This document shows, piece after piece, positions 1 through 53,002 of a DNA stretch of 64,000 bases. Positions within the stretch are counted from its first letter, which is position 1; each line of letters starts with the position of its first letter. Position numbers and translations under genes: made by a program. Location of the stretch: positions 22,625 through 86,624 of the IMG/VR virus record IMGVR_UViG_3300026735_000021, one strand, 5' to 3'. This DNA is from a virus (Duplodnaviria; Caudoviricetes). Under the pieces are notes generated by a model, which was given only the letters and a program-made list of their open reading frames with translations, did not search any database and had not been told where the DNA came from.

Positions 1-1726
1 AACACCATTAATTATTGCTCAAATGAGTGCTCCAGCGTTAAAAGATTATATCCAAGCTGACCAGTTCGTTACAACTCTTAAAGATGACGATTATGAGATC
101 GATCTTGAATCAAAATCTGTACATTTAACAAAAAGCGGTGAAATCAAAGCCAATAGTTATTTTAAAAAAGAGTCCGTATATGATGCCAAGAACACATCAA
201 TTATGCATCGAATAAATCAAGCCTTACAAGCTCGATTAATCCAAAAACTTGATGTGGATTACGCTATCATTCAAAATCCTGAAAATCCAAATAATAAAGA
301 TATTGTTATTATAGACCAATTCACAGGACGGATTATGCCTGGTCGTCGATTCAATAATGGATTACATCAAGCATTAGAAGCCAAACACGCAAAAGACGGT
401 GTAGCTATTCAAGATGAAACAGTAACAACCGCAACAATTACACTTCAAAATTTCTTTAGATTATATAACAAAATTTCTGGAATGAGTGGAACAGCTAAAA
501 CAGAAGAAGATGAATTTTCTGAAATTTACAACATGCGCGTTATTCCAATTGAAACGAATAAACCTCTTGCTCGGATTGACTACGATCTTGAATTGTATTC
601 AACAAAAGAAGGAAAATGGAATGCAATTGTTAATAGAATCAAAATCATTAACAAGAAAAAACAACCAATTTTGGTTGGAACATCATCCGTAAAAGATAGC
701 GAATTGTTATCAAAACGACTAAAAGCCGAAAAAATAGAACACGTTGTTTTAAATGCCAAGCAAGATGAGCATGAAGCTCAAATTATAGCCCTTGCCGGAA
801 ATCAATCAGCCGTAACTATCGCCACCAATATGGCAGGTCGAGGAACAGACATCAAACTGGGTGAAAATGTTAAAGAACTTGGTGGTTTATTTGTCCTTAG
901 TACTGAATTAAATGATAGTCGTCGAATCGACGAACAATTAAAAGGTAGAGCCGGTAGGCAAGGCGATCCGGGAGCAACATTAACAATTGCGTCATTACAG
1001 GATAATTTGTTCCAACGATTTGGCGCTCAATCAATACAAGACAAATTAATAGCATCTTGGCCAAAAGATAAACCATTAACTCTAAACAAAACCGTCATAA
1101 AAATCCTACTTGATGCTCAAAAACGAGTGGAAGGATCGAACTATGATTCCCGAAAATCAACCCTTCAATATGATGACATTGTCCGAGAACAACGAACAAT
1201 ATATTATTTAGATCGAAACATCGTTGTTAATGCAAAAACGGTAGATGAATTAATACCACACATTAAAAAAGTCACATTAGCAATTGAACAAAACCCTGAC
1301 CTTAGAGATAAATCCCAATGGCTCAATTGGAAAGATCACCATAACAATAAATCCTTAACTGACGTTACGCTTGACACATTAGATAAAATGCCTGAAACAA
1401 TAGCATTAGAAACAATTAAAGCTATTATTCTAAGCGCAATGGACGCATCTTGGATTGATCATATTGATGCTCTTGACAAATTAAGATCAGGAATTAGTTA
1501 CCGAAGTTACTCAGGTACAAACCCCGTTATTGCGTATCAAACCGAAGCCGCAGAATTATATAATAATCTCATAAATTCAGTATACAAAACCGAAGGTCAA
1601 AATTACTTACGACTCCAATCCTATAAACCTCAAGAACGATCAGATGTTTATGATAATCAATTTAGTAAATCAATAAAAGGCTCTAAAACAAAATCAATGA
1701 AGAATTTTGTACGAACATTACATTAA
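1..1726 (+). CDS. secA: Preprotein translocase ATPase SecA, C-terminal part (5' end outside window); no C-terminal Cys/His zinc finger
   Basis: SecA motifs IVIIDQFTGRIMPGRRF.NGLHQALEAK, TITLQNFFRLY.KISGMSGTA, ATNMAGRGTDI, QLKGRAGRQGDPG, DWIDHID-like helical wing segment; frame is open to the window edge. Confidence 0.95.
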   Translation, partial: TPLIIAQMSAPALKDYIQADQFVTTLKDDDYEIDLESKSVHLTKSGEIKANSYFKKESVYDAKNTSIMHRINQALQARLIQKLDVDYAIIQNPENPNNKDIVIIDQFTGRIMPGRRFNNGLHQALEAKHAKDGVAIQDETVTTATITLQNFFRLYNKISGMSGTAKTEEDEFSEIYNMRVIPIETNKPLARIDYDLELYSTKEGKWNAIVNRIKIINKKKQPILVGTSSVKDSELLSKRLKAEKIEHVVLNAKQDEHEAQIIALAGNQSAVTIATNMAGRGTDIKLGENVKELGGLFVLSTELNDSRRIDEQLKGRAGRQGDPGATLTIASLQDNLFQRFGAQSIQDKLIASWPKDKPLTLNKTVIKILLDAQKRVEGSNYDSRKSTLQYDDIVREQRTIYYLDRNIVVNAKTVDELIPHIKKVTLAIEQNPDLRDKSQWLNWKDHHNNKSLTDVTLDTLDKMPETIALETIKAIILSAMDASWIDHIDALDKLRSGISYRSYSGTNPVIAYQTEAAELYNNLINSVYKTEGQNYLRLQSYKPQERSDVYDNQFSKSIKGSKTKSMKNFVRTLH

Positions 1727-1763
1727 TGCACGTAGAAGCCATATTTATCCCATATGAGAAAGG

Positions 1764-2333
1764 TTGCAAATGGCCAAGGCAAATAGACCAAACATAAAAT
1801 CAAGAACAACAGGGGGCATTATAATTGCCCTCATCATTATAGCTCTAGTTTTTCTCGGAATTAGATTTTTACCACCAGCCTATCAGGTCATGAAACAAGC
1901 AGATGCCACACCCTTTGAGGCTAAAATATTAACATTCAGAAAAGATGCGAAACAAGCACTGACGAACACGCCGAACAAAGAAATTGACACAATTGCAACA
2001 GATCAATCACAAATTCATAAACCCGGCATGATCATATTCTATAAAATAAATTGCCCATTTTGTGAAGCCGCACATCAGGCAATTGAATCAAAAATCAAAG
2101 CTGTAAATACAACATCAGGTCGAAAAAATATTGTTTTTGTAAATGTTGAATCAGATTTAGGAAAAAAACTCGTTAAAAAATATAACATTCGATATGCCGC
2201 ATCAATTACAATATTAAACAAACAAGGTAAATCATTCAACTTTACCCAGGCAGCCTTAGATGATAAACATAACCATGTGGCGGATAACGATAGTATAAAT
2301 AACGCATTTGACAAATATGCATCACTATTTTGA
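1764..2333 (+). CDS. Membrane-anchored thioredoxin-fold protein (CPFC)
   Basis: N-terminal hydrophobic segment (IIIALIIIALVFLGI) then FYKINCPFCEA CxxC motif and thioredoxin-like beta/alpha pattern. Confidence 0.7.
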   Translation: MQMAKANRPNIKSRTTGGIIIALIIIALVFLGIRFLPPAYQVMKQADATPFEAKILTFRKDAKQALTNTPNKEIDTIATDQSQIHKPGMIIFYKINCPFCEAAHQAIESKIKAVNTTSGRKNIVFVNVESDLGKKLVKKYNIRYAASITILNKQGKSFNFTQAALDDKHNHVADNDSINNAFDKYASLF

Positions 2334-2344
2334 AAGGTAACATC

Positions 2345-2491
2345 ATGAAGAAAACCAAATTTCCAATTAAATGGTTAACTCCAAAAGAAATAGTCAACAT
2401 CACAACAAATGTTGTGATAATGGCTTGTTTCACTACAATATTCACAGCAGGAATTGCAGCTGGAATTGCATACCTCATTAGTTTAATATAA
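2345..2491 (+). CDS. secE: Preprotein translocase subunit SecE (48 aa, not in ORF track)
   Basis: Own translation MKKTKFPIKWLTPKEIVNITTNVVIMACFTTIFTAGIAAGIAYLISLI*; matches the SecE pattern (V/I)xWPxxxExxxxTxxV plus one TM helix; RBS GAAAGG upstream; lies directly before secY. Confidence 0.75.
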   Translation: MKKTKFPIKWLTPKEIVNITTNVVIMACFTTIFTAGIAAGIAYLISLI

Positions 2492-2508
2492 AGGGAAAGG
2501 AGCAATAA

Positions 2509-3759
2509 ATGCTGTCAACACTCAAAAACGCAATCAAAATTAAAGATGTACAAAAAAGAATCCTATACACATTTGGAATCCTCATTATATTTCAAATTGG
2601 AATACATATACCATTGCCCGGAATTGATGCTAGTAAAATAGCATCATTACAAAATAATTCACTATTTTCAATGTTAAACTTAACATCAGGTGGAGCAATG
2701 GAATCATTTGGATTATTAGCACTAGGTGCATCACCTTACATCACAGCAAGTATTGTTATTCAATTGTTAGCTCAAGGTATTTTTCCAAAATACACGCTAT
2801 TTTCTAAACAAGGGCGTGTTGGTCAACAGAAACTAGCAACAAGAACTAGATTTTTAACTCTAGTTTTTGGCTTTTTTCAAGCCATGACCTTAATGTCAAC
2901 ACTTCAATATTTAAAAACCCTAGGCTTTGCCCCATCATTTAATTTCACAACTAAAATGCTAATGTGCTTAGTTTTAGGAATGACATCATTATTTGTGGCA
3001 TATCTAGGCGAAATGATAAATGAAAATGGTATCGGAAATGGATTATCATTAATCATTGCATCTGGTATTCTTGTTAATGTCCCATCTTCAATTAATCAAT
3101 GGATTTCCGATTACTTCATCAATACGAAAATATCAGCAAATTCCTTCATGGATATGGGTCTAATTATAATCTTGATTATAGCCCTCATTTTATTTACCGT
3201 ATATATCAACTCAGCTGAATGTCGAATTCCATTGCAATCCATGCAGAGTCCAAATCAAACAAACGCCCATTATTTACCAATAAAATTAATGGCTGGTTCT
3301 GTTATTCCAGTCATATTTGCATCAAGTATCATTTCCATTGGCTCAATGATTACAACAGCTACAGGTAAAACGTATTCGTTCTTGAATTACAATACACTTG
3401 AAGGCGGATCATTATACGCTATTATGATTCTATTATTTGCTTATTTCTACAACGTGGCTCAAATCAATCCCGATAAAGTAGCCGATAATTTAGAAAAATC
3501 AAGTATGTATATCAAAGGCGTACCGCAATCAGAAAATGTATCATTTATTGGTAAAACCGTTATACGATTAACAAACATTGGTGCGCCTGCTCTTGTATTT
3601 ATTGTAATGATTCCAATTATTATCACAAATACAACAAATATAACAACCCTTGATGGTGTGAGCGGAACAGGACTACTTATTGTTGTGGGTGTGTTCACTG
3701 AGTTATATTCACAAATTAATGGTCTTGCCGCAAAACATCAATACCCACACATTCTCTAA
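2509..3759 (+). CDS. secY: Preprotein translocase subunit SecY
   Basis: KRILYT..., HIPLPGID, LALGASPYITASIVIQLL, GEMINENGIGNGLSLII, PIKLMAGSVIPVIFASS, NPDKVADNL, GTGLLIVVGV; about 10 hydrophobic segments. Confidence 0.97.
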   Translation: MLSTLKNAIKIKDVQKRILYTFGILIIFQIGIHIPLPGIDASKIASLQNNSLFSMLNLTSGGAMESFGLLALGASPYITASIVIQLLAQGIFPKYTLFSKQGRVGQQKLATRTRFLTLVFGFFQAMTLMSTLQYLKTLGFAPSFNFTTKMLMCLVLGMTSLFVAYLGEMINENGIGNGLSLIIASGILVNVPSSINQWISDYFINTKISANSFMDMGLIIILIIALILFTVYINSAECRIPLQSMQSPNQTNAHYLPIKLMAGSVIPVIFASSIISIGSMITTATGKTYSFLNYNTLEGGSLYAIMILLFAYFYNVAQINPDKVADNLEKSSMYIKGVPQSENVSFIGKTVIRLTNIGAPALVFIVMIPIIITNTTNITTLDGVSGTGLLIVVGVFTELYSQINGLAAKHQYPHIL

Positions 3760-3771
3760 GAAAGGAATAAT

Positions 3772-3999
3772 ATGCTAATTTTAATTTACACATTACTATT
3801 GATTCTTAGTTTTATTATGGTAATTCTCATCATGAGCCAACCATCAAACCAAGAAACTTTAACAAGTGCGTTCACTGGCGGATCTAATCTTTTCAAGGAG
3901 AACAAGGTTCGAGGTATACAAAAAACACTTAAAAAGTATACTCTAATCACAGCATTACTAATTGCTATACTTGGATTAGTATCACAATTCATACTATAA
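3772..3999 (+). CDS. secG: Preprotein translocase subunit SecG
   Basis: 75 aa, two TM segments flanking Q-P-S...SAFTGGSNLF...RG..K.L.K.T, the SecG pattern. Confidence 0.9.
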   Translation: MLILIYTLLLILSFIMVILIMSQPSNQETLTSAFTGGSNLFKENKVRGIQKTLKKYTLITALLIAILGLVSQFIL

Positions 4000-4033
4000 G
4001 AGATAGAGTGTAATGCTCTATCTCTTTTTTTTT
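3998..4033 (+). terminator. Intrinsic terminator of the sec operon
   Basis: Stem GAGATAGAG/CTCTATCTC, 7-nt loop, followed by a T run. Confidence 0.85.
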
Positions 4034-4047
4034 AAGGAAATATTATC

Positions 4048-4476
4048 ATGGAAAAAAAGAAAATTATAACAATTATCACAGCCGGAATAGCACTAGTCTG
4101 CATTATCATTGGAGCCATTGGCGTCTATAATGCCTCACAAAAATCAATCAATATCAAATCATATAGCACAATGGACATTTATTCCAAGAGCTACAATCAG
4201 CCCAATCTCAACAACCACGTTCGTATTGAATATTATATGATGAAACCCGATAAACTAGCAATCAATACATTAGTGGAAGCATCAAAAACAAACAAATCTA
4301 CGGTGTTCAATGTATATGACTTGACTCGAAAAATCAATTCTGGCGTCAAAAACCGAATGGGATTAAAAGCATCCCATATTCGGGTAATATCAAGAGATAA
4401 CAAACTATTATATTCTAAAGATCGACCATCTGAAAAAGACATTCAGAAGGCTATAACCGTAGCAAAAAAAGGATAA
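4048..4476 (+). CDS. Hypothetical membrane-anchored/exported protein
   Basis: 142-aa ORF with RBS and N-terminal hydrophobic helix. Confidence 0.6.
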   Translation: MEKKKIITIITAGIALVCIIIGAIGVYNASQKSINIKSYSTMDIYSKSYNQPNLNNHVRIEYYMMKPDKLAINTLVEASKTNKSTVFNVYDLTRKINSGVKNRMGLKASHIRVISRDNKLLYSKDRPSEKDIQKAITVAKKG

Positions 4477-4480
4477 TTCC

Positions 4481-4963
4481 ATGAATTTAAAGAATGCGAT
4501 TACAGAAGAAGATATACCTAATATAAAGTTGAACTTATATTCAACTTTTGGTATAATTTTAAACAAACATCATATTGAATCAAATACTGATAGTATAATT
4601 TGGGTCATTAGTCCGATTACAATCAACAAGAAACCCAAATCCGGCATTAGAGCTAAACTAGGATTTGACTTAGAATCAAAATCAACAATAATTCTAAACT
4701 CTAATAATAATAGTTTAGACATTAACTCAGAAGCATTAGTATATAGCATGACCAAACTAATAGAATCAATTAAATCGCCATTATTAACAACAAATGAATC
4801 TGATATGATTGCATATGTTGAAAAACTCAATGATGAATTAACGAATCTCAACAATAATGCCGAATCACCTATTAAAGCCACAGCCAAAATGAAGTCATTA
4901 GGGGATATTCTTGCTATGATTGATCCAAATATTGAAAAATATGCAAAAAAAGGAAAATCATAA
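4481..4963 (+). CDS. Hypothetical protein (paralog of next ORF)
   Basis: Shares DIP.(I/L)K, DSI..W and C-terminal S..DIL..IDPN...Y with 4963..5454. Confidence 0.6.
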   Translation: MNLKNAITEEDIPNIKLNLYSTFGIILNKHHIESNTDSIIWVISPITINKKPKSGIRAKLGFDLESKSTIILNSNNNSLDINSEALVYSMTKLIESIKSPLLTTNESDMIAYVEKLNDELTNLNNNAESPIKATAKMKSLGDILAMIDPNIEKYAKKGKS

Positions 4964-5454
4964 TGTACAAAATAACAACAATAAAAAATGCAAAAAAATT
5001 ATCAGAAATGGATATACCAACACTAAAAAACATATATGGCTTCGTCTTAGCGTCGGGGTCTGACTCTATTGTTTCAACGTGGGTACTAGACTTTGATATA
5101 TCATACAAAAAGAAACGATCAATCATACCGTTTCTTCCTGCCAAATTTTCAGGACATATACAAGCTCATCATGCAATCAATATTCAAAAACTAAACAATA
5201 AATCAAATATAAAATCACAAGAAATTTTAAATGAAATTTCATCAGAAATTCATAAGATGGATGAACCCTACATTGTTGATTCAAAAGCAGAAGCTGTAAA
5301 ATATACAAATATTTTAAACTCTATTTTCGATGAAATTCATAAACACAATAATGATTCTCATTTATATGTTCATACCATGTCTATCTACGATATTCTAAAC
5401 ACAATTGATCCAAACATGAATGAATATTTGAAAACCAGAAAACCACAATCATAA
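4963..5454 (+). CDS. Hypothetical protein (paralog of previous ORF)
   Basis: Translationally coupled (TAATG); shared motifs as above. Confidence 0.6.
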   Translation: MYKITTIKNAKKLSEMDIPTLKNIYGFVLASGSDSIVSTWVLDFDISYKKKRSIIPFLPAKFSGHIQAHHAINIQKLNNKSNIKSQEILNEISSEIHKMDEPYIVDSKAEAVKYTNILNSIFDEIHKHNNDSHLYVHTMSIYDILNTIDPNMNEYLKTRKPQS

Positions 5455-5470
5455 TGATTGTGGTTTTTTT

Positions 5471-6271
5471 TTATTCACGACGGAAACCCGCACCTAATGT
5501 TGATTCCCAAAATGTTGCCCATTTTCCAGCATTACTCATAACTGAGAAATTGCCCATAAATGCGTCCATTGCATATTTGGGCGCTTCTTTTTTATCCCAT
5601 TTAGACACAAGTTCACCTTGCACAACTCGTCGATATTCTGAATTAAAAGAATTACAAGTGACTAATGTTACTACAGGTTTGCCTCTATCCGTAGCTACAC
5701 TATCATCTAAAACATCACTTTGCCATCGAGACACAGCTACTGTATTGTACACTCTATACTGATACACATGATCAACATCATTCAGCCAGATGTCCATACC
5801 TACCGTAACAACGTCTAATGGTGTAAATAACAAATAAGGATTGGCTAATCGATGACTACCTAATGAATAATTACCTTTACCCATAACTTCGCCCGGTTTC
5901 ATTGTAGCCGCACCACTAACAGCATTCAAATTTGTTAAACCATCAAGGACAGGCAACAACATCCCTCTAGCTTGAGGTATAGATACTTCACCAACTAATT
6001 GAACATCACCATCATCAATAGCTTGGGCCGCAGCCGAAACCGACGCTTGATTATAATCTACAATTTTATCTTGTTTCCATCCCGTTCCATCCGGTTTAGA
6101 TTTTGGCTTGACCATTTCCTGAGTCAATAATTTCTGAGGCTCACGTAATGTTTTCCAATATTTGACATTTGGATACAAAAAAGTGGCAGAACCAACAAGA
6201 AGAAGAAGTATTCCTAATAATATATATATCTTATTACGTTTTTTTTTATTTTTCTTTTTTTTGTCTACCAT
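5471..6271 (-). CDS. Sortase (class A-like)
   Basis: Basic N-terminus + TM anchor; GNYSLGSH (catalytic His), VVTLVTC (TLxTC), RRVVQGEL (catalytic Arg). Confidence 0.9.
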   Translation of the reverse strand: MVDKKKKNKKKRNKIYILLGILLLLVGSATFLYPNVKYWKTLREPQKLLTQEMVKPKSKPDGTGWKQDKIVDYNQASVSAAAQAIDDGDVQLVGEVSIPQARGMLLPVLDGLTNLNAVSGAATMKPGEVMGKGNYSLGSHRLANPYLLFTPLDVVTVGMDIWLNDVDHVYQYRVYNTVAVSRWQSDVLDDSVATDRGKPVVTLVTCNSFNSEYRRVVQGELVSKWDKKEAPKYAMDAFMGNFSVMSNAGKWATFWESTLGAGFRRE

Positions 6272-6281: not shown

Positions 6282-7025
6282 TTATTTCATAACAACAGAC
6301 ATTCCCGTTATACCAACAAAAATTATCCAAACCCATACAACACAACACATCCAGTTAATTCCTGCAAACAGATATCGTATCAGTTTTTCACGGTGGCTGC
6401 CCGTTCTATAATAAAAGAACTTAGGTTTTCGCCCCCGTTTCATTACTGCACCAGAGCCATAAGTCACATATCCAGAAAATGGATTAAACCAGGCAATACC
6501 TTGCTTGCTAAAGGTATCTTCCACAATATGCCAAAAATAGCCAAACACCATCATATTATAATACGGACTATTTGCAAAATACCCAATACCCGTTAAAACT
6601 AATATTGCCCATATTGTATGCGTTATAGTACGATGCGGTATATATTTACTAAAAGGGAAATACCGGCCCAAATACGACTTATCTGAGTCAATATCAGGTA
6701 ATATAGATCCAACAATTCCTGCCACAAACAATAATAAAATATGAAGAATAATTCCAAACGAAAAGTGTGAAGAAACGGTAGTATATCGATTAAAGAAATA
6801 ACCCATATCATGCCAATTTAAACTAAAGACCGACATAAATACTGAGTTGGCTTCAAATATTAAAAATTTTAAAAATGATACAGTATGAAAAGCCGAATCA
6901 TGTATAAATGATGTGTCAACTTCCCGTAATGTACCACTATCTTCCCACGTTTTTAAAAAATATGATCCAAGTAATGATGTGTTAATTACTCCAGCGGTCA
7001 CTACCATATGCGACTTTCCCATCAT
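6282..7025 (-). CDS. Membrane-bound metal-dependent hydrolase (YdjM/DUF457-like)
   Basis: MMGKSH, GSILPDID, HRTITHT, WHIVEDTFSKQG motifs with TM segments. Confidence 0.8.
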   Translation of the reverse strand: MMGKSHMVVTAGVINTSLLGSYFLKTWEDSGTLREVDTSFIHDSAFHTVSFLKFLIFEANSVFMSVFSLNWHDMGYFFNRYTTVSSHFSFGIILHILLLFVAGIVGSILPDIDSDKSYLGRYFPFSKYIPHRTITHTIWAILVLTGIGYFANSPYYNMMVFGYFWHIVEDTFSKQGIAWFNPFSGYVTYGSGAVMKRGRKPKFFYYRTGSHREKLIRYLFAGINWMCCVVWVWIIFVGITGMSVVMK

Positions 7026-13744: not shown

Positions 13745-15661
13745 ATGGCTAATGGAATTCACAACTTCGGCAAAGGAAATAACTCAGGTTCAAACTCAGG
13801 AGGGGGTACTAATGGTACACCCATTGGCGCAATGCCATCCGGTGGATCAGCGTTTGCCTCACAACAACCAACAACGCCTGACGTATTAGAAAACTATAAC
13901 GAAAAAGCAAAAAACGGTGACTTCCATGAAGCCCTATTTCGCGATACTCAAATTATCCAACTCATGAGTGTTCTTACCACAGCAATGCATCCAAATGCAT
14001 TATTGACAGGAGCTGCCGGTGTTGGTAAAACTCAAATTGTTGAAGAAGTTGCCCGTCGACTTGCCAATAACGACCCTATTACAACAGCAATTCTAGGCGG
14101 ATATACTATTTACGAATTGCAAGTAAGTAAACTTGTAGCGGGTAAATCTTACGTAGGACAACTTGAAGAAGCACTTCATGAAGTAATCGAATTTGCATCT
14201 GATCCTAACGAAAAAGCTATTCTTTTCATTGACGAAATTCATCAATTGATGTCAAGCTCAGATCCAACCAGCGAAAAAATTGCCCAAATTCTAAAACCAG
14301 CATTAGGTCGTAAAGATCTCCATGTTATTGGCGCAACAACAACACAAGAAGCGACTACGTTCCTAAAAGACCCAGCCTTTTCTCGTCGTTGGTCTACCGT
14401 TATTGTCCCAGAATTATCACCCGCTGAAACCGTTGAAATTATCAAAAATTTAAAACCCGCCTTGGAAAAACACCACAACGTTGCAATTCCAGACAAAATT
14501 TTAGAGCAAATCATCACATTAGGTGATCAACATAAGCAATATGGTTCTCACCGTCCTGATACATCATTATCATTAATTGACAGAGCAATGAGTGACGAAA
14601 ACATCAACTTTGAAAAACTCAAAGAAGAAGCTAAAAATGACCCGATGATTAAACAATACGTATCATCCGTAAAAATGCCTGTATTATCTATCACTCAGGT
14701 TAAAAAATCAGCAATGTCCTTAATCACTGGATCAGAAACAGCCTTTGATGCCAGTGCTGACGAACTTCGTACAACATTTAATGAAACAATTATTGGGCAA
14801 GATGACGCTAAAGAAAAAATCATTAATTCAATTGAACGTATGAACTTAAAACTCACTCGTCGAACTAAACCTGTAAGTTTCCTATTTGTTGGACCTACAG
14901 GTACGGGTAAAACCGAAATCACAGAACAACTTGCCAAAACAATCTTTGGAAGTAAACGTCGAATGATTGAAATCAATTTGACAGAATACAGTGACTCATC
15001 AGCATTGACTCGAATCACCGGGTCTAGTGACGGATATGTCGGCAGTACATCTAAACGCGAACTACCTTTTGATTCTCTTGAAGCAAATCCTTATCAAGTT
15101 ATTCTTCTTGACGAATTTGAAAAAGGAAGTAAGGCTGTACAACGTTTCTTTATGCAAGCCTTAGACAAAGGTCGTGTAATGACTAACCGTAATAAAGAAA
15201 TTGACTTCACTCGTACAATCATCATTGCTACAACAAATGCCGGAATGACCAAACTCAATGAAAAACAAGTTGGGTTTGGAAATAACAACAAAACATTAGC
15301 CTCTGTTGCCTCAGCCTCAGATATTAATAAAGCGTTAGAACAAAGTTTCGACACAGAATTGCTTAACCGTTTTGAACACATTGTTACGTTCAAACCAATG
15401 ACAAAAGAGCAATATACTCAAATCCTTGCCGTTAAATACAATCAAATCGTAAAAGAAGCAACAGAAAGCCGTCATGACTTAGATTTAAACCCTAAATCAA
15501 TTAACTTGGAAGACGCAACGTCATACGATGTATTGACCAAATTAGCAGATGAATCCTATCTTCCTGAATTCAACGGCCGACCAGCAAGTAAAACAATTAA
15601 CAAATATATTGAGGATTTCATCCTCAATAATGCATCATTAACTAAGCTGGATTTATTATAA
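13745..15661 (+). CDS. Clp/Hsp100 double-ring AAA+ ATPase lacking the canonical N-domain
   Basis: GAAGVGKT/LFIDEIH (NBD1), IGATT, GPTGTGKT/LLDEFEK (NBD2), IIIATTN, ELLNRF; Gly/Asn-rich N-terminus. Confidence 0.9.
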   Translation: MANGIHNFGKGNNSGSNSGGGTNGTPIGAMPSGGSAFASQQPTTPDVLENYNEKAKNGDFHEALFRDTQIIQLMSVLTTAMHPNALLTGAAGVGKTQIVEEVARRLANNDPITTAILGGYTIYELQVSKLVAGKSYVGQLEEALHEVIEFASDPNEKAILFIDEIHQLMSSSDPTSEKIAQILKPALGRKDLHVIGATTTQEATTFLKDPAFSRRWSTVIVPELSPAETVEIIKNLKPALEKHHNVAIPDKILEQIITLGDQHKQYGSHRPDTSLSLIDRAMSDENINFEKLKEEAKNDPMIKQYVSSVKMPVLSITQVKKSAMSLITGSETAFDASADELRTTFNETIIGQDDAKEKIINSIERMNLKLTRRTKPVSFLFVGPTGTGKTEITEQLAKTIFGSKRRMIEINLTEYSDSSALTRITGSSDGYVGSTSKRELPFDSLEANPYQVILLDEFEKGSKAVQRFFMQALDKGRVMTNRNKEIDFTRTIIIATTNAGMTKLNEKQVGFGNNNKTLASVASASDINKALEQSFDTELLNRFEHIVTFKPMTKEQYTQILAVKYNQIVKEATESRHDLDLNPKSINLEDATSYDVLTKLADESYLPEFNGRPASKTINKYIEDFILNNASLTKLDLL

Positions 15662-19092: not shown

Positions 19093-19248
19093 ATCTATAG
19101 AATAACATTAATATATATAAATGTCAACTATAATGTAGAAAAAAAACATCATAAGCATAAAAATGAAAAGCAGAAGAAAACACGTTCAAATACAAGCAAC
19201 TTATAGTAAAATATCACCTATTGGGTGTCATCAATGAAAGGATATCCC

Positions 19249-19989
19249 ATGATTGATATTCATAGCCATATATTACCGAGAATCGATGATGGGGCCAAAT
19301 CCTCATCAGAAACATTAGATTTACTAAAAAAAGCTGAAAAAGAAGGAATTTCATCAATAATTGCCACGCCTCATAAAAACCCTGAATTTAAGCCATCTAT
19401 TGACACAATTACATCATTAGTAAACAAAACAAACACAATTGCTCAAAATAATAACCTTGATATAAATGTTTTAGTAGGGCAAGAAATCAGATTGTACGAA
19501 AATCTTGTATCTGATTTAGAAAACAACAATTTGTTAACATTAAATCAATCAAAATACATTTTAATCGAATTTCCATCAAATAATGTACCCTATTATGCTC
19601 AAGACATTTGCTACCAACTACAAATGAGTAAATACCAACCCATTATCGTTCATCCCGAACGTAATACCGATATCATAAAAAATCCAAATATTTTATATGA
19701 TTTAGTCCAGCATGGGGCATTAGCTCAAATCACAGCCGGAAGTATCATCGGTAAGTTTGGGTCAAAAGCTAAAAAAACAGCATTTAAATTGATAGAGCAT
19801 GAATTGATTCATTTTATCGCAAGTGATACCCATCATTTAAAAACAAAAGATTTTCATATGAAAGCTGCTACAAAAAAATTATCTAAAATATACGGGCAGT
19901 ATTATACTCAATATTTAATAGATAATGCAAAAAAACTTGTAAACAATGAAACGATTCAACCAGGCTATCCTCAACCTATTCGGAGATAG
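19249..19989 (+). CDS. cpsB: CpsB/YwqE-family PHP tyrosine-protein phosphatase
   Basis: MIDIHSHILP..DDG, IIATPH, GQEIR, LIEFP, IVHPERN, FIASDTH; RBS-supported ATG at 19249. Confidence 0.93.
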   Translation: MIDIHSHILPRIDDGAKSSSETLDLLKKAEKEGISSIIATPHKNPEFKPSIDTITSLVNKTNTIAQNNNLDINVLVGQEIRLYENLVSDLENNNLLTLNQSKYILIEFPSNNVPYYAQDICYQLQMSKYQPIIVHPERNTDIIKNPNILYDLVQHGALAQITAGSIIGKFGSKAKKTAFKLIEHELIHFIASDTHHLKTKDFHMKAATKKLSKIYGQYYTQYLIDNAKKLVNNETIQPGYPQPIRR

Positions 19990-20116
19990 AAAGAGTTCAA
20001 CGTGAATCAATACTCAAAAACGCTTTATCAAACAAATTATTGAAAACTCAAACATAAACTTACAGTAAAATCAAACAATTTAATACTGAGTTTCAATCAA
20101 TTATTAAAGGACTATT

Positions 20117-20854
20117 ATGATTCCAAAAATTATTCACTATTGCTGGTTTGGCGGCAAAGATCTACCTAAAAATGTACAAAAATGCATTGAATCTTGGCGA
20201 AAATTTGCACCAGACTATAAAATTAAGCGCTGGGACGAATCAAATTTAGATGTCAATGCCAATATTTATACTAAAGAAGCTTATAAACACAAGAAATATA
20301 TCTTCGTATCAGACGTTGCTCGACTTTCCGTCGTAGCCAAATATGGCGGTTTTTACCTCGATACCGACGTAGAACTCATTAAACCCCTTGACGAACTTCG
20401 TAAATATGACGCTTTCATGGGAATTGAATCAGGAAAAACAAATGTTAATACAGGTCTAGGTTTTGGAGCCATTCCAAATCATCCTGTTATTATTGAAAAC
20501 ATGAACATGTACAAACATCGTTCATTTATTGATCATAAATCAGGCAAAATAGATTTAACCACAGGCATTACAATTACAAAACAAGCTCTAGCCCAAATGC
20601 TTCCATCATTTGAAGTAACAAATGAGCCCGTAACCATATCTATGTCAAAAACATCATTAAAATTCACAATCCTGCCAATTGACTATCTATGTCCATACAA
20701 TAGGGCATCAGGTAAAACACACATTACAGACAAGACTATATCAATTCACCATTATGATACATCCTGGAAATCAAAAAAAAGACAAATTTTTGAGATTAAA
20801 ATTCGTCAAATACTCGGAGATCACATATATGACAAAATTAAATCACTAAAATAA
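20117..20854 (+). CDS. DXD-motif glycosyltransferase (GT32, capsular polysaccharide synthesis type)
   Basis: MIPKIIHYCWFGG, SDVARL..V.KYGGFYLDTDV, IHHY..SW. Confidence 0.92.
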   Translation: MIPKIIHYCWFGGKDLPKNVQKCIESWRKFAPDYKIKRWDESNLDVNANIYTKEAYKHKKYIFVSDVARLSVVAKYGGFYLDTDVELIKPLDELRKYDAFMGIESGKTNVNTGLGFGAIPNHPVIIENMNMYKHRSFIDHKSGKIDLTTGITITKQALAQMLPSFEVTNEPVTISMSKTSLKFTILPIDYLCPYNRASGKTHITDKTISIHHYDTSWKSKKRQIFEIKIRQILGDHIYDKIKSLK

Positions 20855-20863
20855 GGACAAATA

Positions 20864-21103
20864 ATGAAACTATCATATCCACAAGTACAAGCTCTCAAGT
20901 AAACATTATCTCAATTGATTGACGCAGACCCAAATCAAGGAAATCTTACTATTGAAAACATAACATCCCCAACAATGGAATACTTCGTTAAATTGTTTTC
21001 AAAATGTAAACCCACATCCCCACTAACGATAGCCTCATTATTTTACTTTATTGACGAACAATTACAAACAGCACAAATCAGACTAGAAGAAGATCTTAAT
21101 TGA
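20864..21103 (+). pseudogene. Small gene with in-frame TAA at 20900..20902
   Basis: RBS AAGGA + ATG at 20864 is in frame with ORF 20915..21103, interrupted by one stop codon. Confidence 0.4.
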
Positions 21104-21338
21104 ATTTCACAAAACCCATTTAGATTGGGAAATATCATCAGTTTCAAAATAAATATTAAATATTTAACACTAATCGCAGCATTATACGCAATAACATCTA
21201 TTTTCTATTCTCTATTTTTACCATTATCAAAATAAATTGAGTATCAATTGTTGCTACAACATTAATGCTAATTGTACTTTTAATTAACACCAATAAATTA
21301 TTAAAGGTTAAACTTTAAACCGAAAAGGAATAAAAAAA

Positions 21339-21884
21339 ATGACATCAAACATTATTAACGACATCAAACGCCTCAACATCTCAATTGACTCAGTAGAATA
21401 CGACATCACGATTACAACCCCTGTAAATTTAGATGATTTACAATCAGCTGATAACCTACAATATGCTTTTGACTATCCTCAAATCGATCCAAATACAAAT
21501 CAACCTAAAATGGAAATCACAGGAGACAATGCTACATCGAGCGCCAATATTAATCTTAATGATTTTAATATTATTGTTCAAGATATTGCATTTGACGACC
21601 TCAAAGATGTTTTATCAGATATCATTCCATTCATGGACACAATCAATCGTATCAAAGAATACAAAAAGCCAATTTACATCAAATTACCAAATGAAGAAGA
21701 ATCTATTGAAATTGATATGATCATTCCCGTACCGAATGGACTCTCTCTTAAAATCGTCAATTGGGGAACTACAAATCTACTAAAAGGAACACCAATCACC
21801 ATTGAATTTGATGGAAAAATTGAAACAGTAATTGACAACACAGATTTGCTGAAACTTTTCAAAAATATCGCTCAAAACCTATAA
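21339..21884 (+). CDS. Hypothetical acidic protein
   Basis: 181-aa ORF with RBS AAAGGA. Confidence 0.6.
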   Translation: MTSNIINDIKRLNISIDSVEYDITITTPVNLDDLQSADNLQYAFDYPQIDPNTNQPKMEITGDNATSSANINLNDFNIIVQDIAFDDLKDVLSDIIPFMDTINRIKEYKKPIYIKLPNEEESIEIDMIIPVPNGLSLKIVNWGTTNLLKGTPITIEFDGKIETVIDNTDLLKLFKNIAQNL

Positions 21885-21936: not shown

Positions 21937-22689
21937 TTGAAAGGAACTTCACAAGTTATGTACCCATCAAAATCACTCATTACATTCGATCCGAAAAAAT
22001 CTAAACCATTAGCAAAAAAGAATATTCTTCCAGGTGAATCTGTCATTACGATTCATCCAGGATTAAAGTATCCATTCAAAGGCTGTATTGTTAAATGTTT
22101 AGAACACACAGCAATCATTGAAATTACAGAAACTGTTAATATTCCCCAATCTAAAGATCCATCCGATAAAGCATTAGGTATTATGTTAAACAATAGAGTA
22201 CTTGTTGCCTTTAATGAAATTTATAATTCAGACATCTTATGCCCATCCAATCATTTTATTAATCTTATGACCGAAATTGATGACATTAAAAACGAAAAAA
22301 ATAAAATTTATAATGAAATTAATTCAAAATTAGCTAAAATTGAAAATTTGAAAGAAGCAAACTTAGCCCTTCAATCAGTATTAGAACAAAAATGGAAAGA
22401 TATTCGAAAATTCACAAAAGAATCAACAGCGCCTGAACTAACACCCGAATATCTATTAAATAACTGGACAAAAGATGCACTAAAAGATAAACAACCGCAA
22501 ATTGCTACAGCAAAACAAAACCGAGATGTAGCCCAAAATGAATTCGAAGTTACTCAAAACCAATTTGATGCCAATACTTTATCAATGCAGTTTGCCCGAC
22601 AAGAAATTAGTAATCTTAAACATAACCTAAATAATCTCGAGTCAAAACTAAACATTTTATCCTTGGCTAATAATCAAATGGCTATTTAA
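21937..22689 (+). CDS. Hypothetical protein, small beta-barrel-like N-terminus plus coiled coil
   Basis: KGCIVKCLEHTAIIEIT segment then heptad-rich C-terminus; upstream TTGACA-17-TAAACT promoter. Confidence 0.5.
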   Translation: MKGTSQVMYPSKSLITFDPKKSKPLAKKNILPGESVITIHPGLKYPFKGCIVKCLEHTAIIEITETVNIPQSKDPSDKALGIMLNNRVLVAFNEIYNSDILCPSNHFINLMTEIDDIKNEKNKIYNEINSKLAKIENLKEANLALQSVLEQKWKDIRKFTKESTAPELTPEYLLNNWTKDALKDKQPQIATAKQNRDVAQNEFEVTQNQFDANTLSMQFARQEISNLKHNLNNLESKLNILSLANNQMAI

Positions 22690-22773
22690 ATATCTATTAA
22701 GTAACCATATCTTGAAATCAATGATATAATTAAAAGACATCATATTGATGTCTTTTTTTTGAAAGGAATCAAA

Positions 22774-23484
22774 ATGCACACTAAAATCACATTTCAATCA
22801 GAAACCGACTGTATTACTATTAAATCATTAATGGGGATTATACCCAATTCAATAATCGATCCTAATATACTTATACCAAAACCAAAAATACTCGAAGAAT
22901 TTACATCAAGTGTAAATACAGATAAAAGTCAACAGTATGTGGCCTACTATTTGTCATCACTTCCAAAAAATATTCGAGATAAAATGCTTATTAAATTAAA
23001 TAAAATACACCTTAATGACTCGGACAAAAGCGAACGCGATAACATTGAACCAAAAATAAACCAATTTTTGCACCCATTATTATTATTAGAATGGCTTCGT
23101 ATAAATAAATCATACGGATATGGCTACACCATATCAAATCAAAAAGAAATAGGAAAAAAATTGTTTGAAGCCATAATTTCATGCCAATCTTATGACCTAC
23201 CTCAATGGCTATTTTCTAATTGGGGAACAAAATGGCAACCAGAATTAGTATCTCAATCAGATCTGTCTATTTTATTCATTACGGCTGACACTCACCCATT
23301 TAAATATATAAGGAAATTATCGGAAAAAGCACCAAATATAGAAATGTATATTGATTTTGCTGATGAATCTCCTTTCAATAATACATTTGGAAACTATCTC
23401 ATTCATAATGGTAATACCTCGATATTAGAACAAAAACCAAAATATGAAATTTTATCAAAAATAAAAAAAGGATATAATTCATGA
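22774..23484 (+). CDS. Hypothetical protein with NWGTKW motif (DUF1281-like)
   Basis: W...NWGTKW motif, F.TA..HP, and FADE near the C-terminus. Confidence 0.55.
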   Translation: MHTKITFQSETDCITIKSLMGIIPNSIIDPNILIPKPKILEEFTSSVNTDKSQQYVAYYLSSLPKNIRDKMLIKLNKIHLNDSDKSERDNIEPKINQFLHPLLLLEWLRINKSYGYGYTISNQKEIGKKLFEAIISCQSYDLPQWLFSNWGTKWQPELVSQSDLSILFITADTHPFKYIRKLSEKAPNIEMYIDFADESPFNNTFGNYLIHNGNTSILEQKPKYEILSKIKKGYNS

Positions 23485-24359
23485 AAAAAATTACCACAAT
23501 ATCAATTGCATTATTAGCTGCACTTTTAACTCTAACCGGTTGTTCTCAAATTAAAAACAATATTGACATCAAAAAACAAGATGACAAATCAAAAACAGTA
23601 AACATTACCCAGCCATCAGTTGACAGCCACAAGAATTGGCCCAACCAAGCAACCGCAGCATATATCAGAGACAAAGATGATATCAATAATATCACTAAAT
23701 ATCCAGAATATCATAAAGAAGTCAAGCCATTCATCACAACAAATGACCACGTAAAAACAAAAGAACAATGGACAAGGTACGACAAGCTTGACTCATTAGG
23801 TCGAGCTACAATGGCTACAGGTCTAATCAACAAAAATACACTTCTTGCTCAAAAAGATCTTGGCCGTCCACCCTTTTCTTCATCTTTAGTTATTGCCGGT
23901 GAACGCACCCCTAATCGTTTCACAGATAAATGGGAAAACGTATCAGGGTCTAAATCAAACAATCAAAAAGTCAATTTAAAAATGGCTAAATCATCATACA
24001 ATGGTTGGCTTTATAACAAAAGCCATTTATTAGCATGGTCTCTAGGTGGAGATATGACCGACCATAATCTTATTCTCGGAACTCGTGCTCAAAATGTAGG
24101 ATCAAACTACTCAAAAGACCCGGGTGGAATGAGCTATATCGAAACAAAAACTCGAGACTACCTTTATGCTAATGATAAAGCTATAGTATTATATACAGCA
24201 ATTCCCGTATATGACGGTGATGAATTATTACCTCGTGCTGTTTATGTTGAAGCCTATGATATTGATAATCCATCTAAATTTTCAATTGGAACATGGATAT
24301 CAAATCAACAACAAGGTGTGTCTATTAACTACACCACAGGTGAAGCCAAAATCAAATAA
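23481..24359 (+). CDS. Lipoprotein DNA/RNA non-specific endonuclease (EndA/DNA-entry nuclease family)
   Basis: Lipobox LTGC; Y.KLDSLGRAT; YNKSHLLA..LGG; NL..GT..QN; M.YIE; YTAIPVY.G.EL.PRAV. Confidence 0.88.
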   Translation: MKKITTISIALLAALLTLTGCSQIKNNIDIKKQDDKSKTVNITQPSVDSHKNWPNQATAAYIRDKDDINNITKYPEYHKEVKPFITTNDHVKTKEQWTRYDKLDSLGRATMATGLINKNTLLAQKDLGRPPFSSSLVIAGERTPNRFTDKWENVSGSKSNNQKVNLKMAKSSYNGWLYNKSHLLAWSLGGDMTDHNLILGTRAQNVGSNYSKDPGGMSYIETKTRDYLYANDKAIVLYTAIPVYDGDELLPRAVYVEAYDIDNPSKFSIGTWISNQQQGVSINYTTGEAKIK

Positions 24360-46342: not shown

Positions 46343-47668
46343 TTAATCAATTTGAATTTTTCTATTATAGGTTGATGCTACGGCTGCGTCGAATCGACCG
46401 CCAGCAATATCAGACCATGAATCTAACGAAACAAGCCATTTAACAAAGGCATCTGTCACTTCATATTTAAGTGTACGATCCGTATTTTCATCCATTCCAT
46501 TAATTTTAGAATTTGCATCACGAGACGCAGCATCCAATTCATCAATTTCATCAGAATTAAGACCAGTTAAACTTCTAATAAAAACTTCATTTTGATCGCT
46601 ATAAAGTTCACCAGTATCTTTGTTATATCGAAATTTAGTATCATTTTTAAAGTATTGCTCTGTATCTTGATATGCTTCACTCAACACACGATACAATTCA
46701 CCCGATAATTGGCCGGCTTCATTAACAAACATTGATTTAGACAACAGTCCTTTTGCATATATTTTAATTTCATTTTTAAGAACATTCTGTTTCAATTTAT
46801 CAACTTCATCTAATAATTCATTATTAGGAACTGAACTTTCAACAAGATCTTGACCCCTACGCTCAGCTAGTTCCTCGGCCGCTACTTGTGCTTGAATATA
46901 TTCATCCTCTGAATTGAAACCAGAGTCTCGCCAAACTTCTTGATTATGATCAGATTTATACAAGAAATCATTAATGGCATTCATTAAATCATCACTTAAT
47001 ACATCCGGGTCTAATTGATCCATATGATGTTCTGTATAATCATAAACTGACATATATGTTGTTCTTACTGTGTCAACCATTTTTGCTTGTTCCAATCGTT
47101 TATCCAACATAGCATAGAAGTTTGGTTGATTTTGTCTCACATCAAAATCTTTAGCCAATGACAAAGTAGGAACTGTTTGTAATGAATACTTCTTACGAGG
47201 GTCACGAATTGTATTTCCAAGCAAAGCATAACTCATTGCCAATACTGTTTCATTCCTATTCCACACAGGTGAAACCCCTGCTCTAAGAACAACACTATTC
47301 CGAGGTGGAATGAACAGCAAATCATTGAATGATATAACTGGGCGTTCTTTTGTTGACATTGTATAAGATATACGTCCCTCATTTTTATTTAAGATACGTT
47401 CATTATCACGAGTGATTGTTTTAGATTCAATCAATGATTCATGAGTTTGTCCTGACAACTTAACCAATGTATCTAACATTGAGTCATCTGTTGATTTCAA
47501 GAAAACAATAGAGGCATTACCTTGAATAATTTTATCAACACTATCCCCGTAAACGTCCCGTAATTGTTGTAATGTTTGTAATATAAGTGTAAATTGTTGA
47601 TCTTGACCCAGCCCAATACTTAACATTGTTTGTAATGCTGGGATACCATGACCCTCATTTTGTAAGTT
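46343..47668 (-). CDS. virD4: VirD4/TraG coupling protein, exon 4
   Basis: Begins NLQNEGHGIPALQTMLSIGLGQDQQFTLILQTLQQL, continuing the Walker B MLDELG of exon 3; ORF-track prefix MLRTSETTNKKKT is intron sequence. Confidence 0.88.
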   Translation of the reverse strand, partial: NLQNEGHGIPALQTMLSIGLGQDQQFTLILQTLQQLRDVYGDSVDKIIQGNASIVFLKSTDDSMLDTLVKLSGQTHESLIESKTITRDNERILNKNEGRISYTMSTKERPVISFNDLLFIPPRNSVVLRAGVSPVWNRNETVLAMSYALLGNTIRDPRKKYSLQTVPTLSLAKDFDVRQNQPNFYAMLDKRLEQAKMVDTVRTTYMSVYDYTEHHMDQLDPDVLSDDLMNAINDFLYKSDHNQEVWRDSGFNSEDEYIQAQVAAEELAERRGQDLVESSVPNNELLDEVDKLKQNVLKNEIKIYAKGLLSKSMFVNEAGQLSGELYRVLSEAYQDTEQYFKNDTKFRYNKDTGELYSDQNEVFIRSLTGLNSDEIDELDAASRDANSKINGMDENTDRTLKYEVTDAFVKWLVSLDSWSDIAGGRFDAAVASTYNRKIQID

Positions 47669-49625
47669 CGTTTTTTTTTTATTTGTCGTTTCACTTGTTC
47701 GTAACACAAGCTCTATGTTAATTCATAGCACCCTCATTACAAGGCGTTAACCAGACTATATGTCAAGGTCTACTACTTTCGTAGCGATTCCCCCATCTAT
47801 TTTTCGCGCACGTCATATACTTACGTCGCTAACGGAGACGCCATCTCCTAGTCGTTAGAGGTTATACCTAAAACATTAGGCATAAGTCCTACCCGAACAT
47901 GCTCTTTTTACTAATTAAAGTACATCAACTTAGCAACACTATTAATGTTTTTTTATTTCAGCATATTGACATCTTACTTATTTCTTTCAGGTTTCCCAGC
48001 ATTCACGCTCATTGTTACCAATCACGTTGTAGCAAAGTAAGCTCTTAAAGCACTTCCGCGGGTTTAATTGATGTAAAGGTACGCACACATTACATATACG
48101 CAGGGCACTTACTTCAATTAAGAGTTTCTTATTATTTATTCAAAAATTTTATTTCCAATCATGTCTAATGGGGCATCCATCACTAATCCAACGTTTGGCA
48201 TCATTGAGATTACAATCCCATAATACAACATAATTCAAATTATTGGCACGAGCCATAGTTCGTTTGGTCACATCAGACCCCGTCCAAATATCAACATATC
48301 GATCATATAATGGTGTATGTTTTGATTTTAAATAATCAACTTTAGTCAAATCTTCATCAGATTCAGGATCAAACCATTTCCCACCATGTAACCATGTAGC
48401 ATTTAATTCAATAAATAAATCTAAAGATTTAATATAAAAATCGCAATTAAATGGGTATCGTTTATCTAAACGATGTTGTGTCATCACATCATCTTGCCCA
48501 AAATAATTAACAAGCATTTTACCTAATAATTGTTCAGGTTTTGATGTATTCATTGTGCCATTCATCTTTTTAGTATTCTGTATCTTCATAATAGTCTCTT
48601 CTGAACCAAGACAACTTCGTCCGATACTACTACTAGCCCAATGTTCTGATCCATATCTAATCAAACATGTTGATTTTCGTTTATTCATATATTCTTCTGA
48701 ATAAAACACACGCTTAGCATCATTACTCGTTTGCCATAATTGTGAACCATATCTAATCATATTTGTTGCTTTAGTTTTAGCTACAACTTCATCCGCTGAT
48801 AATAATTGTTTCAATCGAACTCTAGCTTCAGCTGATTGCCAATAATAAGGTACACCATATCGTTTCATTGATGTTTCTTTATATTTACGTTGAACATCTG
48901 CTGACAACATGCGTTCACTTCTCAGTTGTCGTTCTTCTGGCGTATTAAATATATGATTTAAATATTCTTTGCCTTCAGTGCTTTGCGTCCAATGATTTGC
49001 TCCATGATTTTTTAAAGATGTAGCTCTATATTTGGCTCGAGCGTCATCAGATTTAATTCCATCTGACATTTTTTTCCGCACATCGTCAGAACCTAATATT
49101 TCAACGAGTTTTTCTTTACCTATATCACTCTCTGCCCACGTTTTAGACCCATATTTTTCAATATTTGTATTCATCGCTTTAGCTCGAGATTTTTTAGACC
49201 AAGGTCCCTCGTTATTTTCTTTCAACATGCGAGCATTATCACTACCAGCCCATGACTCACTACCATATTTGTCATTATTTGTTTTACGTCGTTTTGCTAA
49301 TACTTCATCCGACTTAATGCGTTCACTTTGTTGTTTACGACGTTCAGGTGTCCAATAATTAGCTACATTTTCTTTTGCACAAATTTTGCAATAACCACCC
49401 TGTAAATGATATCCAGGTGTTATTTCAAAATCACCATGAATAGAACAAATAACAATAACTTTAGTAGCATTATTAATATAGTCTACTTTGGAATAATCAT
49501 AATTATATTTTTCAATTATTCCTTTATCTTTGAGTTTTTGAATAAATAAGTTAAGTTTACTTAATTTTTGTTCAGTCATAATATGTATTTCCTTTTCGGT
49601 TTATACTTATATTATAACATAATCA
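47669..49625 (-). mobile_element. Group I intron (intron 3 of virD4) with homing endonuclease in the P1 loop
   Basis: P-like GAATGCTGGGAAACC, R TCTAACGACTAG (47847..47859), S GACATATAGTCT (47753..47764), terminal G at 47669; IGS GTAAGTGCCCTG (48101..48112) pairs with both exons; 5' boundary uncertain by 1 nt. Confidence 0.88.
48149..49579 (-). CDS. Intron-encoded homing endonuclease, PD-(D/E)xK/Vsr-like (EDxHD-type)
   Basis: N-terminal CSIHG...CKIC module, ~40-aa repeats (KT...KYGxxxW), C-terminal CDFYIKSLDLFIELN...HGGKWFD. Confidence 0.8.
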   Translation of the reverse strand: MTEQKLSKLNLFIQKLKDKGIIEKYNYDYSKVDYINNATKVIVICSIHGDFEITPGYHLQGGYCKICAKENVANYWTPERRKQQSERIKSDEVLAKRRKTNNDKYGSESWAGSDNARMLKENNEGPWSKKSRAKAMNTNIEKYGSKTWAESDIGKEKLVEILGSDDVRKKMSDGIKSDDARAKYRATSLKNHGANHWTQSTEGKEYLNHIFNTPEERQLRSERMLSADVQRKYKETSMKRYGVPYYWQSAEARVRLKQLLSADEVVAKTKATNMIRYGSQLWQTSNDAKRVFYSEEYMNKRKSTCLIRYGSEHWASSSIGRSCLGSEETIMKIQNTKKMNGTMNTSKPEQLLGKMLVNYFGQDDVMTQHRLDKRYPFNCDFYIKSLDLFIELNATWLHGGKWFDPESDEDLTKVDYLKSKHTPLYDRYVDIWTGSDVTKRTMARANNLNYVVLWDCNLNDAKRWISDGCPIRHDWK

Positions 49626-49626
49626 A

Positions 49627-51840: not shown

Positions 51841-51929
51841 CTTAAGGCTGGGAACGAGTTCGTCGCGATTCTTAACTCCGAACCCTATATATACTTTCAT
51901 ATATAAAGACTATGTGTTAATCAAAAATG

Positions 51930-52940: not shown

Positions 52941-52973
52941 TTATATTTACCTCGGTTTCGTTCTTATATATTA

Positions 52974-53002
52974 ATTATAACACCCAAACGAGCTCGAGTC
53001 AA
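52974..53002 (-). promoter_or_regulatory. Internal sigma70-type promoter for the intron 1 endonuclease
   Basis: TTGACT-17-TATAAT with TG extension. Confidence 0.75.

Follow-up and report, generated by a model that had tools for sequence, protein, structure and literature searches.

A complete SecA-SecYEG operon with a built-in oxidoreductase on a putative plasmid-like element of Firmicutes type

The SecA-SecYEG translocase is regarded as an essential, chromosomal and vertically inherited core machine, and the housekeeping secE, secG and secA genes lie at separate loci. Why, then, does a record filed among the viruses carry the entire set in a single operon, and which proteins would such a set export? 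We addressed this question with a 64,000-nucleotide stretch of DNA (the window), which covers positions 22,625 to 86,624 of the 86,624-bp IMG/VR record IMGVR_UViG_3300026735_000021 (G000). A sequence-only reading had proposed that secA, a CxxC protein gene, secE, secY and secG lie contiguously, end at one terminator and provide a conjugative element with its own export channel. Open reading frame (ORF) listing and family scans confirmed the contiguous genes and their common terminator. The claimed completeness of the translocon was likewise borne out, as the motor SecA and all components of SecYEG are present and intact. We consider it reasonably probable that this intact, element-owned Sec translocase works as a second general-secretion channel, serving the envelope, surface and transfer proteins of the element.

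The five genes run head to tail in the order secA, a gene for a thioredoxin-like protein with a CPFC motif, secE, secY and secG (Table 1). None of them is interrupted, the gaps between them measure -4 to 37 nt, strong ribosome-binding sites are visible before each, and a promoter-like site with an extended -10 element lies about 35 nt 5' of secA. The full SecA of 795 amino acids (aa) scores 833.6 bits with NCBIfam NF009538 (cut-off 814) and 807.8 bits with TIGR00963 (cut-off 800). It contains the Pfam domains SecA_DEAD, SecA_PP_bind, P-loop_SecA and SecA_SW, with a Walker A motif (MKTGEGKT) at residue 105 and a Walker B motif (DEVD) at residue 210. The Cys-rich SEC-C zinc tail was looked for in the 795-aa protein and is absent, unlike in housekeeping SecA. 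The match of SecY to TIGR00967 spans model positions 2-412 of 414, and SecG has two transmembrane helices, at residues 2-20 and 52-70. Every SecA2 model failed on the window SecA (529-734 bits vs cut-offs of 725-1100), and the SecY2 models gave 121-136 bits on the window SecY, vs cut-offs of 250-353.

As a single sequence, SecE falls slightly below the cut-off of Pfam PF00584 (21.6 bits, cut-off 22.7) and below that of TIGR00964 (18.4 bits, cut-off 27.55). A profile of SecE and five orthologues matches the solved SecE chains 8ya0_E, 7xha_E and 5eul_E with E=2.8e-9 to 4.7e-9, and the best 13 matches of this profile are all SecE. The amphipathic segment with its tryptophan and the C-terminal transmembrane helix are both present, and W15 is invariant among the orthologues. 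The gene probably starts at the ATG at 2345, because a GAAAGG ribosome-binding site, overlapping the stop codon of the preceding gene, precedes that ATG.

The CPFC protein gives weak matches to Pfam Thioredoxin and Thioredoxin_2 (E ~3e-4), and its PDB matches are a protein disulfide oxidoreductase and glutaredoxin-like proteins (E=1.2e-5). Its N-terminus is basic and is followed by a single transmembrane helix at residues 18-36; therefore, the CPFC domain is predicted to face outward, and the protein is a predicted membrane-anchored thiol-disulfide oxidoreductase. Orthologues with identities as low as 29% all retain the CPxC motif, and one of these is PedC-like (a weak match). Because the gene order is retained in relatives with 72% and 41% SecY identity, we take the putative oxidoreductase to be a conserved part of the module and not a passenger.

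Where does this set come from? A search of about 5.8 billion proteins with the window SecY yielded close relatives in only two clusters, at 93% and 72% identity. The next matches share 42-45% identity, and the contexts examined among them (types P0009 and P0003) are secA-(secE)-secY-secG clusters. Contigs of these two types, reaching lengths of 49 and 353 kb, bear ParA, NikA-like, TadE, TrbL, HU and helicase genes, and related 406-aa clusters lie on contigs of up to 364 kb. The nearest housekeeping SecY, from Enterococcus, is 41% identical. The SecA search followed the same pattern as that of SecY, with the nearest housekeeping SecA proteins, from Heyndrickxia, Lacticaseibacillus and E. faecalis, at 47-49% identity. 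No relative appeared among the IMG/VR viral contigs scanned with SecY patterns, and a scan of GTDB species genomes returned only distant SecY proteins of 27-34% identity, mostly spc-flanked and thus housekeeping.

In SecY trees of 62 rows (quick) and 40 rows (careful), the window SecY belongs to a clade with support of 100/98 that contains not a single spc-flanked row. Every SecY row with an rplO or adk flank falls outside this clade, and SecY2 is remote. Of the lineages in the clade, five are found within secA-secY clusters, and plasmid or transfer genes adjoin three of these; the remaining rows are either uncharacterised or come from contigs 2-3 kb long. The SecA tree agrees with this picture: the same element set forms a clade with support of 100/100, whose stem measures 0.59 substitutions per site. 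Both trees are rooted on SecY2/SecA2 via a long branch, and the element clade is not to be read as basal. The phylogeny that the sequence-only reading had called for thus places the window SecY and SecA outside all housekeeping copies sampled, with no nesting among them, and outside SecA2/SecY2. By these comparisons, the window operon belongs to a separate lineage of co-inherited SecA/SecY pairs, found only on mobile-element-like contigs. The SecY and SecA proteins of Lactobacillaceae megaplasmids each form a clade of their own (support 100), apart from that of the window. Forcing the window and Lactobacillaceae clades together, under a constraint that included two further rows sitting inside the two clades, costs 23.8 log-likelihood units, and one origin of both is neither shown nor rejected by the approximately unbiased test (AU p=0.073).

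The P0009 and P0003 types constitute two further abundant lineages, in which SecA is shorter (735-743 aa). Contigs of the P0009 type (L011 and L012) have a guanine-plus-cytosine (GC) content of 27%, reach 353 kb and carry secA-secY-secG; those of the P0003 type (L013-L015) are element-like, have a GC content of 40% and carry secA-secY-secG as well. In L013, an uncalled 51-aa secE overlaps the start of secY; for L011, two short stretches were read, one 5' of secA and one 3' of secG, and neither shows a secE.

The operon also bears marks of selection. Measured against a relative with 93% identical SecY (L066/L065; dS 0.4-1.0), the ratio of nonsynonymous to synonymous substitution rates (dN/dS) is 0.053 for secA, 0.151 for the thioredoxin-like gene, 0.148 for secE, 0.053 for secY and 0.067 for secG, and by this measure all five genes are under purifying selection. 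The relatives with 72% identical SecY (L007-L010) have all five genes in the same order, within about 20 kb of synteny. Upstream of secA, the conserved neighbours comprise a 347-aa protein, a PrsA-like lipoprotein foldase, two small ORFs, a CPBP/Rce1-like membrane protease and a 501-aa single-pass surface protein; downstream of secG, three small ORFs are followed by a convergent sortase, a YdjM hydrolase and further genes. The sortase is syntenic in L007-L010 and in L065. At 41% SecY identity, L069 shows the series CPBP, SecA, PedC-like oxidoreductase (weak match, CPDC motif), 51-aa ORF, SecY and 77-aa ORF, in which the 51-aa and 77-aa ORFs occupy the positions of secE and secG, and this cluster adjoins NikA-like and ArdA-like genes. 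Judged by gene order, the operon is the core of a conserved, putative envelope module of roughly 12 kb.

What kind of element carries this module? The record, filed as a virus, is linear, has a GC content of 33.6% and is estimated by CheckV to be 58% complete. It encodes a MobL-family relaxase and pieces of a VirD4/TraG-type coupling protein gene (Table 1). Its replication and repair genes include a D5-type primase-helicase, a ligase, a uracil-DNA glycosylase (UDG), NrdD/NrdG and SNF2, UvrD and RecD-like helicases. Additionally, it carries genes for a 2062-aa RNA-polymerase-like protein, TnpB, a retron-type reverse transcriptase and two ClpB/ClpC-like double-AAA+ ATPases (window 13745-15661, plus strand, 638 aa; 57016-58812, minus strand, 598 aa). 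Most plausibly, the record covers part of a large, plasmid-like transferable element of Firmicutes with a low GC content (34%). Metagenomes of food fermentations, dairy products and foods, sampled in several studies, contain either the stretch nearly intact or close relatives of it; most of the metagenomes holding it are food or dairy, and its probable source is labelled a subsurface metagenome. No RNA dataset is listed among the sequencing runs that hold the stretch, and a megablast of PLSDB with the first 20 kb of the record gave no match.

Sec genes on mobile elements have been described before. A third SecY-SecA pair on the megaplasmid of L. reuteri LL7, beside secY1-secA1 and secY2-secA2, was noted in 2020 (Milovic et al.; PMC7446861). 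In RefSeq, secG, secA and secY are annotated on closed megaplasmids of L. kefiranofaciens (pWW1), L. crispatus, L. iners and L. reuteri, and secE on pWW1 and pLc83. These Lactobacillaceae megaplasmids (LL7, pWW1, pLc83 and pC0094A1; closed, 94-195 kb) resemble the window in keeping secG, secE, secA and secY together. However, their order is secG(-secE)-secA-secY, their clusters hold no oxidoreductase, and their proteins share only about 31-37% (SecY) and 41-44% (SecA) identity with those of the window. The Lactobacillaceae "secG" is four times as long as usual (about 270-290 aa), its SecG-like part being joined to other sequence (L005 4489-5370, L006 4522-5403, L057 3604-4410 and L058 3250-4131).

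The second comparison is with the Hodor conjugative megaplasmids of the human gut, which carry co-transcribed secY-secG-secE, trigger factor and sortase B, and whose authors propose that the sec operon exports two giant sortase-anchored proteins (Yuan et al., bioRxiv 2026; PMC12934698). Like the window, Hodor is a Firmicutes-type transferable element once filed with huge phages, with secY, secG and secE near a sortase and a chaperone, as part of a module for surface proteins; in the window, secE, secY, secG and the sortase gene lie within 4 kb, and MobL and VirD4 are on the same contig. The two differ in that Hodor has the order hyp-secY-secG-secE, no reported SecA and trigger factor as chaperone, whereas the window has SecA, the in-operon CPxC oxidoreductase and a PrsA-like foldase; a search of the fragment for trigger factor (Trigger_N) gave no match. 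Moreover, Hodor elements have a MOBH-like (HD nuclease) relaxase, a GC content of 45-47%, lengths of 211-389 kb and a gut habitat, in contrast to MobL, a GC content of 34% and a food/dairy habitat for the window. This comparison of the window with Hodor draws on the published description.

Several further secY genes labelled as plasmid-borne in PLSDB were rejected. The records from C. difficile, B. subtilis, Monoglobus, Parabacteroides, L. fermentum, Listeria and S. agalactiae look like chromosome pieces, as they carry the spc operon (NZ_CP149721.1, NZ_AP028965.1, NZ_OY725740.1, NZ_OY725757.1, CP033372.1, NZ_LR134400.1 and CP147646.1; L054, L056, L059, L060 and L062-L064). Such records, labelled complete plasmids, inflate counts of "plasmid-borne" secY. 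Plasmid p1 of B. longum K2-21-4 (NZ_CP065396.1) is a genuine 198-kb megaplasmid with a lone, very divergent secY (L055 7001-8371); this gene has no secA nearby and adjoins a WhiB regulator, a TnpB gene and type I-E cas genes. Papers on pMP7017 and on L. kefiranofaciens do not mention Sec genes, and a 2017 preprint on SecA/SecY does not treat plasmids.

Gene identities, intactness, purifying selection, synteny, element context and a clade confined to mobile elements are what we observed, and they form the ground for the following model. The host would retain its housekeeping Sec system, beside which the element would build a second SecYEG channel. SecA would push proteins with signal peptides through this element SecYEG; once on the outside, the exported proteins would be folded by the oxidoreductase and the PrsA-like foldase, and some of them anchored by the sortase. 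Export by the element would then depend less on the capacity or compatibility of the host that it enters. Several element proteins have signal peptides, lipoboxes or membrane anchors, and candidate clients are the 501-aa surface protein, a secreted 267-aa protein, a lipoprotein nuclease, a DUF285 protein and the sortase itself. Hodor and LL7 are published parallels, Hodor for a sec operon with a proposed export role (PMC12934698) and LL7 for a third SecY-SecA pair (PMC7446861).

Several observations weigh against this model. LPXTG heuristics and Gram_pos_anchor, applied over 86.6 kb, found no sortase substrate. The fragment carries no genes for signal peptidase, YidC or the signal recognition particle (SRP54); therefore, the Sec set is not self-sufficient and would rely on the host. 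Coexistence of the set with a housekeeping Sec system is inferred rather than seen. As to the claim that the element is conjugative, the MobL relaxase and the VirD4 pieces agree with it, but no mating-pore gene (VirB4-type; AAA_10, CagE_TrbE_VirB) was found in the incomplete 86.6-kb record, and for this reason the link of the Sec set to transfer is contextual.

The structural part of the sequence-only reading is supported by these data, while sequence does not decide between a private channel and a general booster. As a booster, the element translocase would raise or replace host Sec capacity without being dedicated to element proteins; it could buffer the cost of a large element, withstand interference of host or phage with Sec, or remodel the host envelope. 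This is a possible explanation, although not the one we favor. SecA and SecY score as canonical equivalogs and not as specialised paralogues, no dedicated substrate, Asp protein or glycosyltransferase adjoins the operon, and the RNA polymerase-like protein and the two Clp-type ATPases are further genes of "autonomy" on the element, all of which would suit a booster; the long stems and the mobile-element-only clade, however, suggest specialisation, and the sec copies always lie amid genes for envelope proteins (sortase, PrsA-like, CPBP). At the other end stands a stricter version of the channel, in which an old, mobile-element-only SecA-SecE-SecY-SecG lineage with its built-in oxidoreductase would constitute an orthogonal, private export-and-fold pathway, mainly for envelope and transfer proteins of the element. 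We put this forward tentatively, as rather unlikely; if it were true, giant conjugative elements could set up their surface machinery even in hosts that are phylogenetically far apart, whatever the Sec system of the host.

The remaining explanations concern the identity of the carrier and of the genes. A fragment of a jumbo phage, bringing Sec genes to control host secretion during infection, would agree with the filing as a virus, the CheckV estimate and the phage-like replication genes (NrdDG, ligase, UDG and D5-type primase), yet we judge it improbable: no capsid, tail or terminase gene was found by Pfam in most of the larger ORFs or by PHROGs in ten unassigned ORFs, MobL and VirD4 are present, and related sec clusters lie beside NikA-like, TrbL, ParA and ArdA genes. 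Comparable sortase-bearing "huge phage" records have, moreover, been shown by the Hodor authors to be megaplasmids (PMC12934698). An accessory SecA2/SecY2-type system for one glycosylated, serine-rich adhesin shares with the window a second SecA/SecY pair tied to cell-surface proteins, a sortase nearby and, in SecA2, the lack of a C-terminal zinc tail. Such systems have Asp1-5, glycosyltransferases and a serine-rich substrate, whereas no Asp1-3, glycosyltransferase or serine-rich repeat gene was found among the neighbours scanned with Pfam and NCBIfam; the SecA2 and SecY2 models stay far under their cut-offs, true SecE and SecG are present, and in neither tree do SecA2/SecY2 of E. raffinosus come near the window copies. 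The sequence-only reading had separated the operon from the accessory system, rightly so, and this alternative is largely refuted and very improbable. Finally, the genes might be the only sec genes of an unsampled, small-genome Firmicute, carried on its chromosome or a chromid. They are canonical by score and strongly conserved, and the SecA-SecYEG of Bacilli belongs to the same four families at equivalog level, has intact ATPase motifs and is nearest in sequence. In every housekeeping copy sampled, however, secY sits in the spc ribosomal operon, whereas the window has four sec genes in one mobile-element operon, on long branches. Ribosomal-protein and Asp1-3 families are absent from the flanking ORFs scanned, as had been claimed; the 86.6-kb record contains no tRNA, and the ORFs scanned include no ribosomal or core-metabolic genes. 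The relaxase, the coupling protein, TnpB and the retron-type reverse transcriptase also argue against a chromosome, as does the occurrence of the same clade on contigs with plasmid partition and transfer genes, and of all explanations we consider this one the least credible.

Table 1. Position of the sec operon, its neighbours and the transfer genes in the window
Feature	Window position	Strand	Details
secA, 3' part (574/795 codons)	2-1726	+	Start 661 nt before the window; full gene G000 21963-24350
Thioredoxin-like CPFC protein, 189 aa	1764-2333	+	Likely start ATG 1770
secE	2330-2491	+	53 aa from TTG 2330; more likely 48 aa from ATG 2345
secY, 416 aa	2509-3759	+	TIGR00967 312.4 bits (cut-off 253.6)
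secG, 75 aa	3772-3999	+	TIGR00810 52.7 bits (cut-off 30.85)
Intrinsic-terminator-like hairpin	3998-4026	+	13-pair stem, 3-nt loop, T8; directly after the secG stop codon
Three small ORFs (142, 160, 163 aa)	4048-5454	+	Conserved; no Pfam family; first with N-terminal transmembrane helix
Two-way terminator	5437-5469		After the three small ORFs
Sortase, 266 aa, N-terminal transmembrane anchor	5471-6271	-	Pfam Sortase E=1.4e-15; convergent with the sec operon
YdjM-type membrane-bound metal-dependent hydrolase	6282-7025	-	Pfam YdjM E=3.5e-20; syntenic in relatives
VirD4/TraG-type coupling protein gene, in pieces	46343-54315	-	T4SS-DNA_transf and TraG-D_C matches on two separate ORFs
MobL-family relaxase, 788 aa	59749-62115	-	Pfam MobL E=5.4e-40; nearest plasmid relatives annotated relaxase MobL

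Several neighbours of the operon deserve mention. The three small ORFs after secG are syntenic in relatives, at 75-79% and 31-35% identity, with dN/dS of 0.16-0.6. The 160-aa and 163-aa ORFs (window 4481-5454, plus strand) both match best to one ORF of L008 (31% and 35% identity); these possible paralogues may stem from a tandem duplication in the window lineage. The sortase scores 40.6 bits with TIGR01076 (cut-off 39.35), and all sortase class models remain below cut-off. The 501-aa single-pass membrane protein directly upstream of secA (G000 20369-21874, equal to L004 369-1874) consists of a long coiled-coil, a Ser/Thr-rich linker and a C-terminal domain; in a protein atlas, it shows only a weak resemblance to the MapZ extracellular domain (TM-score 0.41-0.51, low-confidence model). 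Farther away, a lipoprotein-type non-specific DNA/RNA endonuclease with an LTGC lipobox (window 23481-24359, plus strand) lies directly 5' of an ATP-dependent DNA ligase, and such a surface or secreted nuclease of the element could bear on competition or DNA uptake. A CpsB/CapC-type tyrosine phosphatase and a capsule-synthesis-type DXD glycosyltransferase are encoded at window 19225-20854 (plus strand), which suggests that the element may also alter surface polysaccharide.

Taken together, a Sec channel on a mobile element is of a kind already known, although little studied and only just beginning to be reported, and no experiment on such a channel was found in the searchable literature. New here are a separate and diverse lineage, the SecA motor, the conserved in-operon putative oxidoreductase and the food/dairy habitat. 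The mobile-element-only clade, the agreement between the SecA and SecY trees and dN/dS values of about 0.05 point to large mobile elements that keep a complete Sec copy over long evolutionary times. Cultivable Lactobacillaceae with analogous megaplasmid sets make the question directly testable. The oxidoreductase in the operon would make it a naturally occurring case, in Gram-positive bacteria, of a genetic link between export and oxidative folding. If long-term retention by mobile elements is true, general secretion would be part of the mobile gene pool, and plasmids in food and gut bacteria may use Sec to influence their host range and to remodel surfaces.

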